Source: a virus
Taxonomy: Duplodnaviria > Heunggongvirae > Uroviricota > Caudoviricetes
IMG/VR virus record: IMGVR_UViG_2690316285_000017
DNA length: 6,352 nt
Direction: 5' to 3' (one strand)
Under the pieces are notes generated by a model. It was not told the origin of the DNA. It worked only from the letters and a program-made list of their open reading frames with translations, and searched no databases. This document shows positions 1 to 6,352 of the stretch, piece after piece (the first letter of the stretch is position 1; every line of letters starts with the position of its first letter). A program made the position numbers and the translations under genes.

Positions 1-155
1 TTGAACGTGCTAAAGCTGAAGGGGTACATATGGGGAGGCCTGTAAAAGCTTCTTCAGAGGCTGTACAGACGCTTATTTCACAAGGTAAGACGAGGTTGCA
101 GATTCAGGAAGAGTTAGGAATCTCTAGAGCAACTTATTACAGACTTGCTAAATAA
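1..155 (+). CDS. Small serine recombinase (resolvase/invertase family), 3' end only; gene is truncated at the window start
   Basis: Frame 3 from nt 3 reads ERAKAEGVHMGRPVKASSEAVQTLISQGKTRLQIQEELGISRATYYRLAK then TAA at 153-155. The GRPxK motif followed by an HTH ending ..S(R)AT.YR is the typical C-terminus of Hin/Gin/TnpR-type small serine recombinases. Not in the ORF track because it is 5'-truncated. Confidence 0.6.
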   Translation, partial: ERAKAEGVHMGRPVKASSEAVQTLISQGKTRLQIQEELGISRATYYRLAK

Positions 156-492
156 GTTACTGAATAGTTACATGGATGTAGCTGATATTTGGCTTTTTTG
201 CCAAGGGGGTCACATAGCTGGTGTGACGGGTACTTAGCAGCTACAGACATCTGTCAGATATTTTTGAAGATTCGGGGAAGATGAGATTCAAAGAGGGCTA
301 GTCATTTTTTATAAAAATTTTCAGATTCTGAAAAGTTACTGTACAGATTTTGCACAATCCTACCAAACCTCATAGTTGATTCGATTAGAAGCTAATCTCA
401 TAGAAAGCTCTGTAGCGAGTTTTAACCCCATTTTTAGGGGTAACCTATAGGGATGTACTAACCACCTTAAAATAAAGGGGTAAAATCGCTTA

Positions 493-514
493 GAATGCGT
501 TACAGAGCGTCTGA
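493..514. repeat. Lone copy of the ~26 bp arm motif shared by the two inverted-repeat elements (agaatgcgttacagagcgtctg)
   Basis: Contains cgttacagagcg, a 12/12 match to the 3' arm of element B; its reverse complement cagacgctctgtaacgcattct matches the 5' arm cagacgctctcaatcgcattct at about 18 of 22 positions. Confidence 0.5.
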
Positions 515-847
515 GAAGCCATATTCACAGATTTTACTAAAACCTCAGACTTCTAAGTAGTCTTTTAACAGGAGGGGTTCCCCTATGGTCACATATCCCC
601 TCTCTTTCCACTAAGTAAGCCTTAGCAGCACCTAAGCAACAATTGACTAACAGATTCGGTAGAGTCTATCTCATAGGTCAACTTCATAAACTCAGAGCTA
701 AGTTACCTTGAAAGATTCTACCAAGAACTACACAGGTGTTATTTAGTCTGACTGTGAAGGGATATTTAACGGGAGAAGAGATACGATATAACCCGAAGGG
801 AGAGTATCATCTTAACAATTATCTTAAGAATAAAAACTGAAAAACTC

Positions 848-1637: not shown

Positions 1638-1814
1638 TTAACGGGGGTCTGTGTGGTCGTTATCCTTAAGGTCAAGCGTCCATGTACGACCGAACAGTTT
1701 AAAGACAACAAGCACTCTGACGAGGACGTAGCGAAGTAGCAGGCCTGCAATCAGCCCAATACCTCCACCAGTCCATACATCAGGTGACCCCAGCTCAGGA
1801 GGGAGATTTACCAT
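1638..1814 (-). CDS. Small (58 aa) predicted membrane protein with one hydrophobic helix; an alternative upstream start at 1970 would give 110 aa
   Basis: ATG at 1814-1812 is preceded on the minus strand by cttacaAGGAaaactaATG. The product MVNLPPELGSPDVWTGGGIGLIAGLLLRYVLVRVLVVFKLFGRTWTLDLKDNDHTDPR has a single TM-like segment. The locally GC-richer sequence fits coding DNA. The same frame stays open to an ATG at 1970 that has its own SD (ggggagag) and an extended -10 upstream, but that extension runs through repeat element A. Confidence 0.4.
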   Translation of the reverse strand: MVNLPPELGSPDVWTGGGIGLIAGLLLRYVLVRVLVVFKLFGRTWTLDLKDNDHTDPR

Positions 1815-1828
1815 TAGTTTTCCTTGTA

Positions 1829-1926
1829 AGACGCTCTCAATCGCATTCTGACACAAAAAGTACCTGACCTTATGAGTTGACCTGAAGAGGTCGTTTAACT
1901 CGTTACAGGGCGATTGAAGAGGTCTG
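1829..1926. repeat. Inverted-repeat element A (~98 bp): ~26 bp imperfect-palindromic arms flanking a unique core
   Basis: 5' arm agacgctctcaatcgcattctgac (from 1829) and 3' arm cgttacagggcgattgaagaggtctg (1901-1926). The arms are near reverse complements, and both are near-identical to the arms of element B. Confidence 0.8.
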
Positions 1927-1992
1927 TGTGCAATGCAAAATATGCGACCAAATACATAGCCACGCCTCATATTTTACTCTCCCCATAAACCC

Positions 1993-2028: not shown

Positions 2029-2058
2029 TTGACATTAGTCTTTGAAAATGCTAATATT
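2029..2058 (+). promoter_or_regulatory. Sigma70-type promoter P1 (TTGACA-N17-TAATAT)
   Basis: TTGACA at 2029-2034, a 17 nt spacer, TAATAT at 2052-2057; about 50 nt upstream of the ATG at 2109. Homologous to P2 over about 65 bp. Confidence 0.6.
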
Positions 2059-2947: not shown

Positions 2948-3220
2948 ATGAAGCAATGGCGAGATGATATTAAACGGTTCTTTGCAACTTACTTCATGAT
3001 TAATTATGAGACAGGAATGCTTGAATGGATTGATGGTGGAGAGGTTAAGACAAGAGATGATGCTTACGGTAATCCAATGATTCGTTATGGCACTCGTGAT
3101 TATTATCTGAAGTATGTCATCTGGTTTTTGCATCATGAAGTTCAGGCAACTAAAAAGATTATCTTCAGGGATGGTAATAAAAGAAATTGCCACCCAAACA
3201 ATTTACTCCTGGAGATTTAA
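2948..3220 (+). CDS. Small protein (90 aa) with a degenerate HNH_3-like motif, probably not catalytic
   Basis: SD aggagg 7 nt upstream. YLKYVIWFLHH...IIFRDGNKRNCHPNNLLL resembles the HNH_3 signature (H.L.W..hG...DHIDGNK.NN..NLR), but FRD replaces the catalytic DH(I)D. Confidence 0.6.
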   Translation: MKQWRDDIKRFFATYFMINYETGMLEWIDGGEVKTRDDAYGNPMIRYGTRDYYLKYVIWFLHHEVQATKKIIFRDGNKRNCHPNNLLLEI

Positions 3221-3420
3221 TGTTATGTATTAAATTCGAATATTTGACAGATAAAATGATTAAGCATGTATCAGACCTGCTCATCAAAGAAGGTGGTTTC
3301 GGTGATGCTTGCAATCCAAAAGATATCTTCATTCATGCCACCAGCCCAAACGCAACACTAAAGACAGCAGTTACAGCGGAATGGTTTGAACGAAATAAAG
3401 CGGAATTAGGTTATTGGTAG
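3220..3420 (+). CDS. Hypothetical small protein (66 aa), translationally coupled to the upstream gene
   Basis: ATG at 3220-3222 overlaps the upstream TAA (3218-3220) as TAATG; SD ggag about 6 nt upstream. The track's longer ORF from 3187 overlaps the preceding gene by 34 nt and has no SD, so the 3220 start is preferred. Confidence 0.55.
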   Translation: MLCIKFEYLTDKMIKHVSDLLIKEGGFGDACNPKDIFIHATSPNATLKTAVTAEWFERNKAELGYW

Positions 3421-3456
3421 TCCGAGACTTTAAGAGAAATTAGAAAAACAGCTTAT

Positions 3457-3576
3457 CAGACGCTCTCAATCGCATTCTAACGCAAAAAACTATCTTATTT
3501 TAGGGTGGGTAATACCACTACAGGCTACCCCTGAAAAAGACTGTTTAGCTCGTTACAGAGCGATTGAGGAGGTCTG
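3457..3576. repeat. Inverted-repeat element B (~120 bp), paralogous to element A
   Basis: 5' arm cagacgctctcaatcgcattctaacgc (from 3457) and 3' arm cgttacagagcgattgaggaggtctg (3551-3576). Intergenic between the gene ending at 3420 and the gene starting at 3597. The arms can form a stem of about 26 bp with about 4 mismatches. Confidence 0.8.
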
Positions 3577-3596: not shown

Positions 3597-3920
3597 ATGA
3601 ACGAATATGAATTACAGATTTTCATTGATAGCGACACTGCTATGATGGTGCAGGCTTTCGCTGATTCCGGTGTATCAATTGACCTTGATAAATTACTAAA
3701 GCTAATGGCTGAAAACTCAGAAGAAATTGAAGACTTTATTCAGGAAATTGAAACTGGTGAACCGCGTTTTATGTTTCCTGTTACCGACTCAAACATGAAG
3801 CGTCTTATTATCGAAGAAACGAACAAATACAGCGTTAGCCCTGAAAAATATCTCAAGGCGGCTATAGCAATTTTGTATAGCGATAATATTCTGGTGACGG
3901 ATTCGAAGGTGGTGCATTAA
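3597..3920 (+). CDS. Hypothetical acidic protein (107 aa)
   Basis: ATG at 3597 with SD aaggag 9 nt upstream. The track's TTG start at 3564 lies inside the 3' arm of element B and is considered unlikely. Confidence 0.6.
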   Translation: MNEYELQIFIDSDTAMMVQAFADSGVSIDLDKLLKLMAENSEEIEDFIQEIETGEPRFMFPVTDSNMKRLIIEETNKYSVSPEKYLKAAIAILYSDNILVTDSKVVH

Positions 3921-3985
3921 TGGAATTGGTGATTATCTGTTTTGTATTGATTGGTATGATTGCAGGTGCATCTATTAAAGTATAA
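3920..3985 (+). CDS. Candidate 21 aa hydrophobic micropeptide (MELVIICFVLIGMIAGASIKV), translationally coupled
   Basis: ATG overlaps the upstream TAA as TAATG (3918-3922); SD-like gaaggtgg 7 nt upstream; the product is almost entirely hydrophobic. Very short, so it could be fortuitous. Confidence 0.25.
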   Translation: MELVIICFVLIGMIAGASIKV

Positions 3986-4009: not shown

Positions 4010-4038
4010 TTGACAGACAACCTTGAGCATGACATAAT
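4010..4038 (+). promoter_or_regulatory. Sigma70-type promoter P2 (TTGACA-N17-CATAAT), a paralogue of P1
   Basis: TTGACA at 4010-4015, 17 nt spacer, CATAAT at 4033-4038. The upstream ATGTTAC-N5-TGTTAAAA elements and the downstream TGTATATAT are conserved with P1. Confidence 0.6.
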
Positions 4039-4045
4039 TGTATAT

Positions 4046-4192
4046 ATGGGGGAGAGCAATTCTCTCTTATTTTTTCTTTCAATAATCCGATGGATGGATA
4101 TTCTGAGTTTGAAAGGTGCAATGCTTTTCGTCCTAGCCTTTCAGGTTGGTCTGAGAGGCTATCTCAAAAAGTCTTTGTTCATTCATTATTGA
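4046..4192 (+). CDS. Candidate leaderless small hydrophobic protein (48 aa); alternatively this stretch is the body of a ~190 nt small RNA
   Basis: ATG at 4046-4048 lies 7-8 nt after the P2 -10, where transcription is expected to start (leaderless). Product MGESNSLLFFLSIIRWMDILSLKGAMLFVLAFQVGLRGYLKKSLFIHY. TGA at 4190-4192 is followed 16 nt later by an intrinsic terminator. Confidence 0.3.
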   Translation: MGESNSLLFFLSIIRWMDILSLKGAMLFVLAFQVGLRGYLKKSLFIHY

Positions 4193-4207
4193 ATCCTTTA
4201 CAGCTTT

Positions 4208-4235
4208 GCCCTAATCATGAGTTAGGGCTTTCTTT
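4208..4235 (+). terminator. Rho-independent terminator
   Basis: Stem GCCCTAA (4208-4214), 7 nt loop, TTAGGGC (4222-4228), then TTTCTTT (4229-4235). Confidence 0.6.
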
Positions 4236-4304
4236 AAGAGTTTTTAAACAGAGCTTTTAAAGAAAGTTTTCCTGAAACTTCGTTAACGTTATAAGCAAAC
4301 CTCC

Positions 4305-4339
4305 AAAGCCCTTCACAGATTATGTTTAGGGCTTTTCTT
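4305..4339 (+). terminator. Second terminator-like hairpin
   Basis: Stem aGCCCT (4307-4312) pairs with AGGGCt (4328-4333) across a 15 nt loop, followed by ttttctt. The stem resembles that of the hairpin at 4208-4235. Confidence 0.35.
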
Positions 4340-4408
4340 AATAGAGCATCTTTAATAAATCGTTAAGTCATCTTCTAAGTGTATTGGCGTTGAAGGTGCT
4401 CTATTAAG
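4337..4408. repeat. Perfect 12 bp inverted repeat (cttaatagagca ... tgctctattaag) separated by 48 bp
   Basis: Arms at 4337-4348 and 4397-4408, directly upstream of the SD/ATG of the gene at 4436; the first arm overlaps the U-tract of the preceding hairpin. Confidence 0.8.
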
Positions 4409-4435
4409 AAATAACCACACTTAGAGGAAATTATA

Positions 4436-5534: not shown

Positions 5535-6335
5535 ATGGCACAATTTAAAGTTGATGATTTTCTGATTGAGTTAAGTTTTAACTCTCAGAAAGTTTTAAAA
5601 GGCTTGGAAAAAGCCGAGAAACAAACGATGCAGGTAGCATCACGAATTGAGAAGCGATTGAATAAGTCGTTTAGAGTTAATCCTACGCCTTTAAATGATT
5701 CTCTCAAACTAATGGAAAGAAATGTCGATAAAACTGTTTCCAAGATTGAGCAGCGTCTTAAAAACACTAGAGCGTTTAAGATTAAAACTGAAATTGAGGA
5801 TACTTTAAAGCCACTTAGACAACCAAGACAGCCACGAATTAGCGGAAGCAGAGCAATCACAGCAGCTTACTCAGCGAATATGAGCAAGCTTCGTGACTTT
5901 AATCCTATGCTTGAGAAGTATTTTAAAAGCCAGTATTACAGCTTAAGCAGTAAATCCAAGACACTTGGAAACGAAACTTTTAATCGTGAGTTAGCAAAGT
6001 TAAATCAGTCTCTTCGTGAAACACTTTCTAAGTTTAACAAGACCACCAGCAAAAATAATCACAGTGAAAATGCTTCAAATAGTCTGGATGTATTAGCTAC
6101 GAGTGCAATCAAAGCAGGTACAGCCATTTATAGTTTTCAGACAGCCTTAGAAGCTTACAGGCGGATTATGGAGGTTGGTCTGAAAAAAGAAGCATCACAA
6201 CGAGCGGCACAATTCGTTTTAGGTGATGAAGGTGCTAAACGAGCTACAGAATTTGTTAAGAATCTTGCTGATAGTAGTGGTGTAGACCAGATTGAAACAT
6301 TAAGCAGTTTTGCTAAGTTTGAAGTGGCACACTGA
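5535..6335 (+). CDS. Hypothetical protein (266 aa), K/S/T/N-rich and probably largely helical
   Basis: SD aagaggtg 9 nt upstream of the ATG; a long ORF that ends with TGA inside the window; no family recognised from sequence. Confidence 0.6.
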   Translation: MAQFKVDDFLIELSFNSQKVLKGLEKAEKQTMQVASRIEKRLNKSFRVNPTPLNDSLKLMERNVDKTVSKIEQRLKNTRAFKIKTEIEDTLKPLRQPRQPRISGSRAITAAYSANMSKLRDFNPMLEKYFKSQYYSLSSKSKTLGNETFNRELAKLNQSLRETLSKFNKTTSKNNHSENASNSLDVLATSAIKAGTAIYSFQTALEAYRRIMEVGLKKEASQRAAQFVLGDEGAKRATEFVKNLADSSGVDQIETLSSFAKFEVAH

Positions 6336-6352
6336 ATTTGGCCACCTGAACA

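Follow-up and report, generated by a model that had tools for sequence, protein, structure and literature searches.

Does the short open reading frame (ORF) that runs against the main gene array of IMG/VR virus record IMGVR_UViG_2690316285_000017 encode a protein, and, if so, what would that protein do? The stretch analyzed here is 6352 nucleotides (nt) long and is referred to as the window; positions are those of the window unless a related copy is named. The initial annotation, made from the letters of the window, had proposed at this place a small membrane protein that might be a toxin, a holin-like protein, or a superinfection-exclusion factor. Comparison with related copies shows that 1638–1814 on the minus strand is a genuine protein-coding gene under purifying selection, core and single-copy in the element that carries it. 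By the same kind of comparison, that element is a ~10- to 12-kb integrative element of Shigella sonnei, Escherichia coli, Escherichia albertii, and Citrobacter, and the window is a part of it. That the ORF is a gene and that its product is a membrane protein is very probable. The fuller statement that this real membrane-protein gene specifies a nonlytic, envelope-level factor that acts against or senses phage, and that is neither a type I toxin nor a holin, is one that we put forward tentatively and whose chances we judge to be somewhat short of even.

The ORF was found where it had been placed, from ATG to TAA on the strand opposite to the main array (Table 1), and encodes 58 amino acids (aa). 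Its locally higher guanine-cytosine (GC) content was confirmed (51.4% versus 37.9% in the remaining window). GC amounts to 68% at first and 47.5% at third codon positions; the increase thus arises mainly at first positions and mirrors the amino acid composition. Twelve diverse E. coli loci were fetched first, giving 13 sequences together with the window. In 12 of the 13, the ORF is intact and in frame; in the exception, L010, it is interrupted by an insertion sequence (IS). The E. coli loci form two allele groups, of 58 aa and of 61 to 62 aa, which differ by in-frame 3-nt/12-nt indels and by conservative V/I, L/F, and K/R exchanges. Variable sites are distributed over codon positions 1, 2, and 3 as 20, 4, and 32 (chi-square p = 2.6e-5), a pattern that sets the ORF apart from a chance reading frame. 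Pairwise ratios of nonsynonymous to synonymous substitution rates (dN/dS) among the copies range from 0.06 to 0.36.

Conservation of the frame in homologous elements, on which the initial annotation had made its proposal depend, was checked, and the frame was found to be kept in E. coli, E. albertii, and Citrobacter. Copies from E. albertii and Citrobacter, as well as an outlier element, have the gene in an equivalent place, ~200 to 300 base pairs (bp) from the first operon gene and pointing away from it; the protein is 57% identical in Citrobacter and 79% identical in the outlier. That the NCBI pipeline PGAP, which calls a hypothetical protein here in eight loci, skips L001, L002, and L009, and that a few truncated or frameshifted variants exist, could be taken as signs of a chance or decaying frame that has no function. 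Given the codon-position pattern, the low dN/dS, the in-frame indels, the cross-genus conservation, and the retention of the ribosome-binding site and promoter described below, this explanation is extremely improbable. Of 5426 complete E. coli genomes, 402 (about 7%) contain the region around the ORF, and the family also occurs in S. sonnei. Among clusters formed at 90% identity, two were looked up; they have 527 and 51 members, and 102 contigs carry the exact window sequence. In E. coli O157 Sakai, for which ribosome profiling has been published, the element was not found at yecE, the one site checked.

A mechanically called 110-aa ORF that begins with the ATG at 1970 was rejected, because stops interrupt its extension at positions that differ between related copies; in L011, the stop is immediate. 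Since the upstream frame is closed by stops and the protein alignments show no conservation ahead of MVNL, the start is assigned to the Met codon at 1814. Just inside the gene, the CTCCCTCCT/poly-C stretch at 1797–1805 (codons 4 to 6, encoding L-P-P) is a local indel hotspot whose length varies between copies: One codon is lost there in L005 and in the 61-aa variant P0042, and L014 has a C9 run at ~8020–8035. This variation could be due to slippage-prone sequence or to homopolymer sequencing error.

The gene also appears to have expression signals of its own. Both the Shine-Dalgarno (SD) sequence and the putative extended −10 promoter that had been proposed for it were borne out (Table 1). The predicted promoter ties for the best score in the window, and its core, TG(G/A)TATAATGG, is kept in every locus, those of Citrobacter included. 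An AAGG or AGGA core is present at constant distance in all three leader types, which contain the palindrome described below, contain a different insert, or are minimal. Conservation of the leader across E. coli, E. albertii, and Citrobacter covers the ~70 nt nearest the promoter. When 12 leaders were folded with RNAalifold, a hairpin of seven pairs was obtained, with seven one-sided, wobble-compatible changes and no broken pair. Since its G-U pairs are possible only in the RNA of the minus strand, the hairpin provides modest evidence that this strand is transcribed. It scored as weakly terminator-like in our scan.

The small-gene promoter and the main operon promoter are arranged back to back, with 6 bp between their −35 boxes. 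In the minus-strand promoter region, TAACA occurs twice as a direct repeat with a spacing of 11 bp; the pair could conceivably form an operator. Past the stop codon is another hairpin, which may be a two-way terminator, albeit with a weak fold score; a tighter 9-bp version, CCCCTGTAC...GTATAGGGG, is found in other E. coli copies, and a different hairpin in Citrobacter copies. An upstream mini-ORF coupled to the small gene, which in some leaders has its AUG near the 5′ end and its UGA beside the main AUG, was considered and rejected as not conserved: It has an early stop in L016, and its AUG is lost in L003, L006, and L007. The purine-rich 5′ end of the leader could pair with the CUCCCUCCU codons over 6 to 8 bp in every variant, without clean covariation, and we mention such pairing as speculation.

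The protein was described in the initial annotation as having one strongly hydrophobic helix. The hydrophobicity is real (the best 19-residue Kyte-Doolittle window, residues 19 to 37, averages 2.29), and AlphaFold2 predicts a single helix over residues 11 to 54, with predicted local distance difference test (pLDDT) values of 88 to 90 over residues 21 to 40. What did not stand is the strength of the helix as a lone transmembrane segment: The unweighted sum on the Hessa scale is ~+1.3 kcal/mol for the hydrophobic helix, which holds the invariant R28 and R33. The helix is thus marginal and of the kind that usually packs against other helices. The N side carries a charge of −2 (the first 13 to 16 residues are net negative), while four K/R residues fall within residues 28 to 43; by the positive-inside rule, this distribution predicts an N-out, C-in topology. 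The N-terminal 13 residues are acidic, and the C-terminal tail is basic and then acidic. Family members range from 58 to 64 aa. We strongly infer that each would form one long helix in the inner membrane, with a periplasmic N terminus and a cytoplasmic C-terminal tail.

Residues invariant across genera are W14, (G/S)16-x3-G20-x3-G24, R28-Y29, V32-R33, F38, and L40-F41-G42-R43-x-W45-xx-D48-L49-K50-D51. Among them is a small-xxx-small motif, G16-x3-G20-x3-G24 in E. coli and Shigella and S-x3-G-x3-G in Citrobacter; the Gly-zipper families of Pfam did not match the protein. The invariant positions suggest that the helix packs against other helices in the membrane and that the cytoplasmic tail makes contact in a sequence-specific manner; they speak less for generic membrane damage. 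No match to the protein was found in Pfam (E ≤ 1), PHROGs, NCBIfam, and PADLOC (E ≤ 0.1), among Protein Data Bank (PDB) sequences, or by tblastn in 50,697 phage records. A profile run against 1.84 billion representative proteins gave 17 hits, 15 of which are members or fragments of the family and 2 of which are marginal, multi-stretch matches to long proteins. Databases name the protein only as hypothetical (FORC11_2023 of S. sonnei is an example), and the searchable literature mentions neither the peptide nor its accessions. Judged by these searches, the family has no relatives beyond its element; it is new, and the kind of gene, a small membrane-protein gene on a mobile element, is a familiar one.

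How might such a protein act? Read from a near-consensus extended −10 promoter that points away from the operon, it would be made while the element is resident in the chromosome. In this resident state, it could be a membrane factor that influences phage infection at the level of the envelope, either by excluding, or defending against, helper-type or competing phages or by sensing them. The link to phage infection is a guess, prompted in part by the tape measure and baseplate proteins of Felix O1–like kind that the element encodes, and the exclusion or defense role itself is conjecture. Several points weigh against this proposal. Repression of the promoter, or attenuation by the leader hairpin, could mean that the gene is not expressed in the resident state. 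With two arginines and a marginal Hessa score, the helix could be interfacial or amphipathic instead of transmembrane. In one outlier copy, L014, the canonical ATG is out of frame through the C9 tract. The PADLOC defense models gave no hit at E ≤ 0.1, and the phage records hold no homolog. Last, where transcription starts, that the ORF is translated, and how the product is located and oriented in the membrane are matters of prediction.

Table 1. Coordinates of the small gene, its signals, the palindromic modules, and full copies of the element (the last in the numbering of their own loci).
Feature	Position	Strand	Remarks
Small-protein coding sequence, 58 aa	1638..1814	−	ATG 1814–1812, TAA 1640–1638; translation MVNLPPELGSPDVWTGGGIGLIAGLLLRYVLVRVLVVFKLFGRTWTLDLKDNDHTDPR
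Predicted sigma-70 promoter of the small gene	2022–1993	−	TTAACA-18-TGgTATAAT, extended −10; 11/12 consensus + TG
Predicted 5′ leader, ~170 nt	1815..1986	−	Start placed from the −10-to-ATG distance
SD region AAGGAAAA	1818..1825	−	AAGGA core at 1821–1825, 6 nt before ATG
Conserved 7-bp leader hairpin (GUGGCUA...UGGUCGC)	1944..1963	−	RNAalifold on 12 leaders
Hairpin ACCCCTG...CAGGGGT past the stop codon	1584..1626	Both	Fold z = −1.6 (weak); short T runs on both strands
Main operon promoter	2029..2057	+	TTGACA-17-TAATAT + TG; back to back with the small-gene promoter
Optional palindromic module, ~105 nt	1823..1926		Exactly between leader core (…CACACAG) and SD
Palindrome copy 2	3452–3576	Same DNA orientation as leader copy	Ahead of the gene at 3597; fold z = −5.7
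Collapsed inverted palindrome copy	490–556		
Full copy L001	14607–27644		
Full copy L002	14232–24844		
Full copy L014	1722–13194		
Full copy L018	2456–15658		

The leader contains one further structure that bears on the choice between explanations. The inverted repeat that the initial annotation had noticed is present, as the arms AGACGCTCTCAATCGC and GCGATTGAAGAGGTCT of a palindrome inside 1823–1926 that folds with z = −3.5 on the minus strand and equally well on either strand. Its standing as a control element of the gene was not upheld, since it is optional (about half of the copies have it) and also occurs elsewhere in the element. It is present in the window, L001 to L006, L008 (where it is cut by an IS), L012, L015, and L018, and missing from L007 and L009 (both of which have a different insert) and from L011, L013, L016, and L017; ~204 of the 402 genomes cover it. 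A second copy lies between operon genes and a collapsed, inverted one to the left of the small gene (Table 1). Although copies differ by 10 to 20% elsewhere, the left-arm 21-mer AGACGCTCTCAATCGCATTCT hardly varies among them. L001, L003, L004, and L012 showed the leader copy only (the last three being short stretches), L007 and L009 have the intergenic copy only, and L011, L013, L016, and L017 have neither. Since the leader and intergenic copies occur independently of each other, and since loci missing both still have the gene, its promoter, and its SD, the palindrome is best regarded as an optional module outside the core control of the gene.

As a family, these modules are ~105 to 125 nt long and have conserved arms and variable interiors; a compensatory change between the arms (T>C with A>G) was seen in one E. 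albertii copy. The module is confined to genomes carrying this element, and the idea that it is a general E. coli repeat (ERIC-like) was rejected, as it occurs only in the ~400 element-bearing genomes. It could be a site for protein binding, packaging, or RNA processing. The inverted repeats at 492–518 and 1823–1849, together with the opposite orientation of the recombinase in L002 and L011, had suggested an invertible switch that would uncouple the gene from its promoter; this was rejected because the recombinase genes of L001 and L002 are different sequences. The copies that break at 1824 are collinear and merely do not have the palindrome.

Could RNA be the main product of the locus, with the protein secondary? 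The leftward transcript would then be regulatory and would pair with the operon transcript through the palindrome. The two modules are direct repeats, with copy 1 read leftward and copy 2 rightward, so that the resulting RNAs would be complementary (matches of 89% over 37 nt and of 91% over 34 nt, with a perfectly complementary 21-nt stretch beside the SD). Nearly every copy has the 21-mer unchanged, and the conserved leader core contains the strand-specific hairpin. RNA-based immunity has a precedent in satellite P4. Working against such a regulator, and weakening a trans-antisense link between the modules in particular, is the finding that the two copies do not travel together; moreover, the coding frame itself is under clear purifying selection, and a palindrome that folds alike on both strands is equally likely to have a DNA-level role. 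We consider an RNA regulator quite improbable.

A different possibility is that the protein damages membranes: Its glycine-zipper-like face would oligomerize into a depolarizing pore, making it an addiction toxin, an abortive-infection executioner, or a lysis-timing factor like LidI. The size, the single helix, the (G/S)xxxGxxxG motif, and the charged C-terminal tail do resemble small pore-forming toxins, and the leader is long and structured, as is typical of type I toxin messenger RNAs (mRNAs). In half of the copies, a 21-nt stretch by the SD is perfectly complementary to the operon transcript at 3458–3478, which offers a possible RNA antidote. LidI itself is a precedent (PMC7182436). The search for an antisense RNA that the initial annotation had called for gave a different picture. 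In a scan for sigma-70–type promoters, which weak or non–sigma-70 promoters would escape, no candidate scoring at least 9/12 was found across 1500–2000 on the plus strand, over the gene and its leader, and a cis-antisense RNA to the gene was dropped as a candidate for this reason. Rfam gave no hit, at gathering level or at E ≤ 1, in the whole window, and neither Hok_Gef, Ldr, TisB, Ibs, and ShoB nor other toxin families matched the protein (Pfam E ≤ 1, NCBIfam E ≤ 0.1). The SD is left unpaired in the predicted leader folds. The only complementary sequence found was the palindrome copy in the operon, which many copies that retain the gene do not have. Copies that do not have the palindrome have no detectable RNA partner, yet they retain the strong promoter and the gene; under such conditions, an unrestrained toxin would be hard to maintain. 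The invariant polar motif, too, suggests a specific partner over generic damage. Overall, these results leave the type I toxin suggestion without backing, and a membrane-damaging effector in the broader sense is doubtful, though it deserves to be taken seriously. The holin-like suggestion fared no better: No endolysin or spanin gene is present in the full element copies (L001, L002, L014, and L018), no holin family of Pfam or PHROGs matched, and the gene is by itself on its strand and is not transcribed with the late genes.

The nature of the carrying element bears on the proposed resident-state factor as well. The window is 85 to 91% identical to a ~10-kb chromosomal element found in several hundred complete E. 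coli genomes; the phage and plasmid collections hold no close match to it, except for its last 36 bases. Its 185-aa protein is 100% identical to one on >1000 S. sonnei contigs, which identifies S. sonnei as its source. Full copies begin with a small serine recombinase, the C-terminal helix-turn-helix of which is encoded at window positions 1–155. Next come 1.5 to 2 kb of mostly noncoding, repeat-rich DNA with optional cassettes (Dam methylase and AP2-type regulator) and then the small membrane-protein gene. The first operon genes encode 185-aa and 92-aa proteins; these are followed, in order, by an optional HNH endonuclease gene, genes for small proteins, and genes for proteins of 107, 236, and 69 aa. 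The last two operon products are a tape measure protein of 691 aa and a Dit-like baseplate protein of 256 aa. Then comes a large serine recombinase, in place of which the outlier has a tyrosine integrase at the other end. Insertion sites differ between copies (beside wrbA, beside tonB, in yecE, and near msrQ).

Across 98% of its length, the baseplate protein shares ~70% identity with a protein of Felix O1–like virulent myoviruses; for the tape measure protein, full-length identity to those of Felix O1–like phages is 28%. The structure predicted for the neighboring 185-aa protein (pLDDT 51) is too poor for a fold search, and PDB sequence searches with the 185-aa and 236-aa proteins were empty. 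The searchable literature describes no such element, no satellite with these tail genes, and no satellite of Felix O1–like phages. From its gene content, the element looks like an undescribed satellite-like parasite of Felix O1–like phages or a defense element against them.

Several observations concern the window beyond the small gene. Its end, 6317–6352, is the terminal inverted repeat of IS911 and is identical to IS911 ends in Shigella phages Sf6 and SfII; since IS911 cuts the tape measure gene (5535–6335) after about 260 codons, the S. sonnei copy of the element is defective. The middle of the operon is a swappable cassette (window 2948–3420 versus L001 17872–18258), which holds either an HNH endonuclease, a 66- to 77-aa protein, and palindrome copy 2 or a 128-aa protein and no palindrome. 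The region 156–1560 (~1.4 kb) is rich in repeats and contains no convincing gene. Two exact 28-nt tandem copies lie at 848–903, and two ~95-nt repeats lie at 1325–1407 and 1419–1502; in related copies, a Dam methylase or AP2-type regulator occupies the region. TATATATDG occurs four times on the plus strand (1353, 1449, 2060, and 4041; 0.15 expected) and AAGAGGTC three times (0.45 expected). An iteron-containing replication origin is one possible reading of this region, and an RNA-coding function is another.

Within 4010–4435, there is a second strong predicted promoter, TTGACA-17-CATAAT + TG (11/12), which shares ATTGTATATAT(A/G)G with the operon promoter at 2029–2057. Directly after it comes a terminator hairpin (4046–4070 + T run), followed by more terminator-like hairpins at 4208–4228 and around 4304–4344 and by a 22-nt inverted repeat at 4334–4411, all of them before the 236-aa, tape measure, and baseplate genes. 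This layout resembles that of an antitermination-controlled late promoter or of a source of very short RNA.

Upstream of this region, at 3920–3985 on the plus strand, lies a second tiny hydrophobic ORF of 21 aa, MELVIICFVLIGMIAGASIKV, the ATG of which overlaps the stop codon of the 107-aa gene (TAATG). Its counterpart in other copies, including those of Citrobacter, is a 25-aa M(G/A/T)LII(A/L)WTLLGLxxGCWxxNTxN(K/R)N. The micro-ORF is unannotated in all annotated records fetched. In the window, its product and the 58-aa protein have IG(L/M)IAG in common.

The micro-ORF raises the possibility that the 58-aa protein is a structural or accessory partner of the element's own machinery, either as an anchor or chaperone for the tape measure or baseplate proteins or by pairing with the 21- to 25-aa protein. 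The shared segment would fit such pairing, as would the finding that, in every copy examined, the early operon ends with a conserved GxxxG micro-ORF; the element has genes for tape measure and baseplate proteins, and the conserved motif in the predicted cytoplasmic tail is consistent with protein-protein contact. However, the alleles of the two small proteins do not covary across loci, and the small gene is transcribed separately from, and opposite to, the operon that it would serve. We regard such a partnership as unlikely. A more specific and bolder version of the resident-state proposal is that the protein is the membrane module of a new family of satellites of Felix O1–like (Ounavirinae) phages, an enterobacterial counterpart of the PLE satellites of Vibrio cholerae. 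It would then, alone or with the 21- to 25-aa micro-protein, sense or block entry of the helper genome mediated by the tape measure protein, or it would trigger the response of the element. This version is improbable in its full detail.

Small membrane proteins are often missed by annotation. Here, a first-pass guess has become a well-supported gene with a defined start, a predicted promoter, and a conserved motif, all of which can be mutated directly. The larger interest lies in the carrying element rather than in the small gene. Phage therapy and biocontrol make use of Felix O1–like phages. Should the element or its small protein affect the outcome of infection, this would be relevant to host-range prediction and would add a satellite-helper system in a tractable host.

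Among known systems, type I toxins (Hok/Gef, Ldr, TisB, Ibs, ShoB, DinQ, and ZorO) share with the small protein a length below 65 aa, one hydrophobic helix, a polar charged tail, a long structured 5′ leader, frequent location on mobile elements, and a tendency to be missed by annotation. The small protein differs from them in that no sequence relationship was found (Pfam E ≤ 1), nor an antisense or divergent small-RNA promoter or an Rfam antitoxin RNA. In addition, its SD is unsequestered in the predicted folds, and it has an invariant polar motif and two invariant arginines within the helix. With holins and antiholins, it has in common that it is a small membrane protein of a phage-related element, with a small-xxx-small motif that would allow oligomerization; the missing endolysin and spanin genes, the lack of a holin family match, and transcription apart from the late genes distinguish it.

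A closer parallel in genetic setting is LidI of the V. cholerae PLE satellites, which is 66 aa long in PLE1/2 and is encoded by a previously unannotated transmembrane ORF (PMC7182436). PLE is a chromosomal island that has a large serine recombinase and depends on a virulent myovirus, and LidI is detectable only after phage infection (PMC7182436). Like LidI, the protein described here is the product of a small, inconsistently annotated, predicted transmembrane ORF on a serine-recombinase island. Unlike the infection-dependent LidI, its gene has a constitutive-looking predicted promoter that faces away from the operon. The profile search, with a library that may miss small unannotated ORFs, returned only the gene's own family. 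The recombinases and Felix O1–like tail genes of the carrying element suggest that it may be a satellite.

HK97 gp15, T4 Imm, and P22 SieA are small superinfection-exclusion proteins of the inner membrane, which are expressed from promoters of their own in the resident state. The step affected by HK97 gp15 is DNA entry, in which the tape measure protein takes part. The small protein differs from this group in having no similarity in the phage collection or PHROGs and in being encoded by a core gene of its element, not by an accessory insertion. What it shares with the group is that it is a small predicted inner-membrane protein with its own predicted promoter, in an element that carries a tape measure protein of its own.

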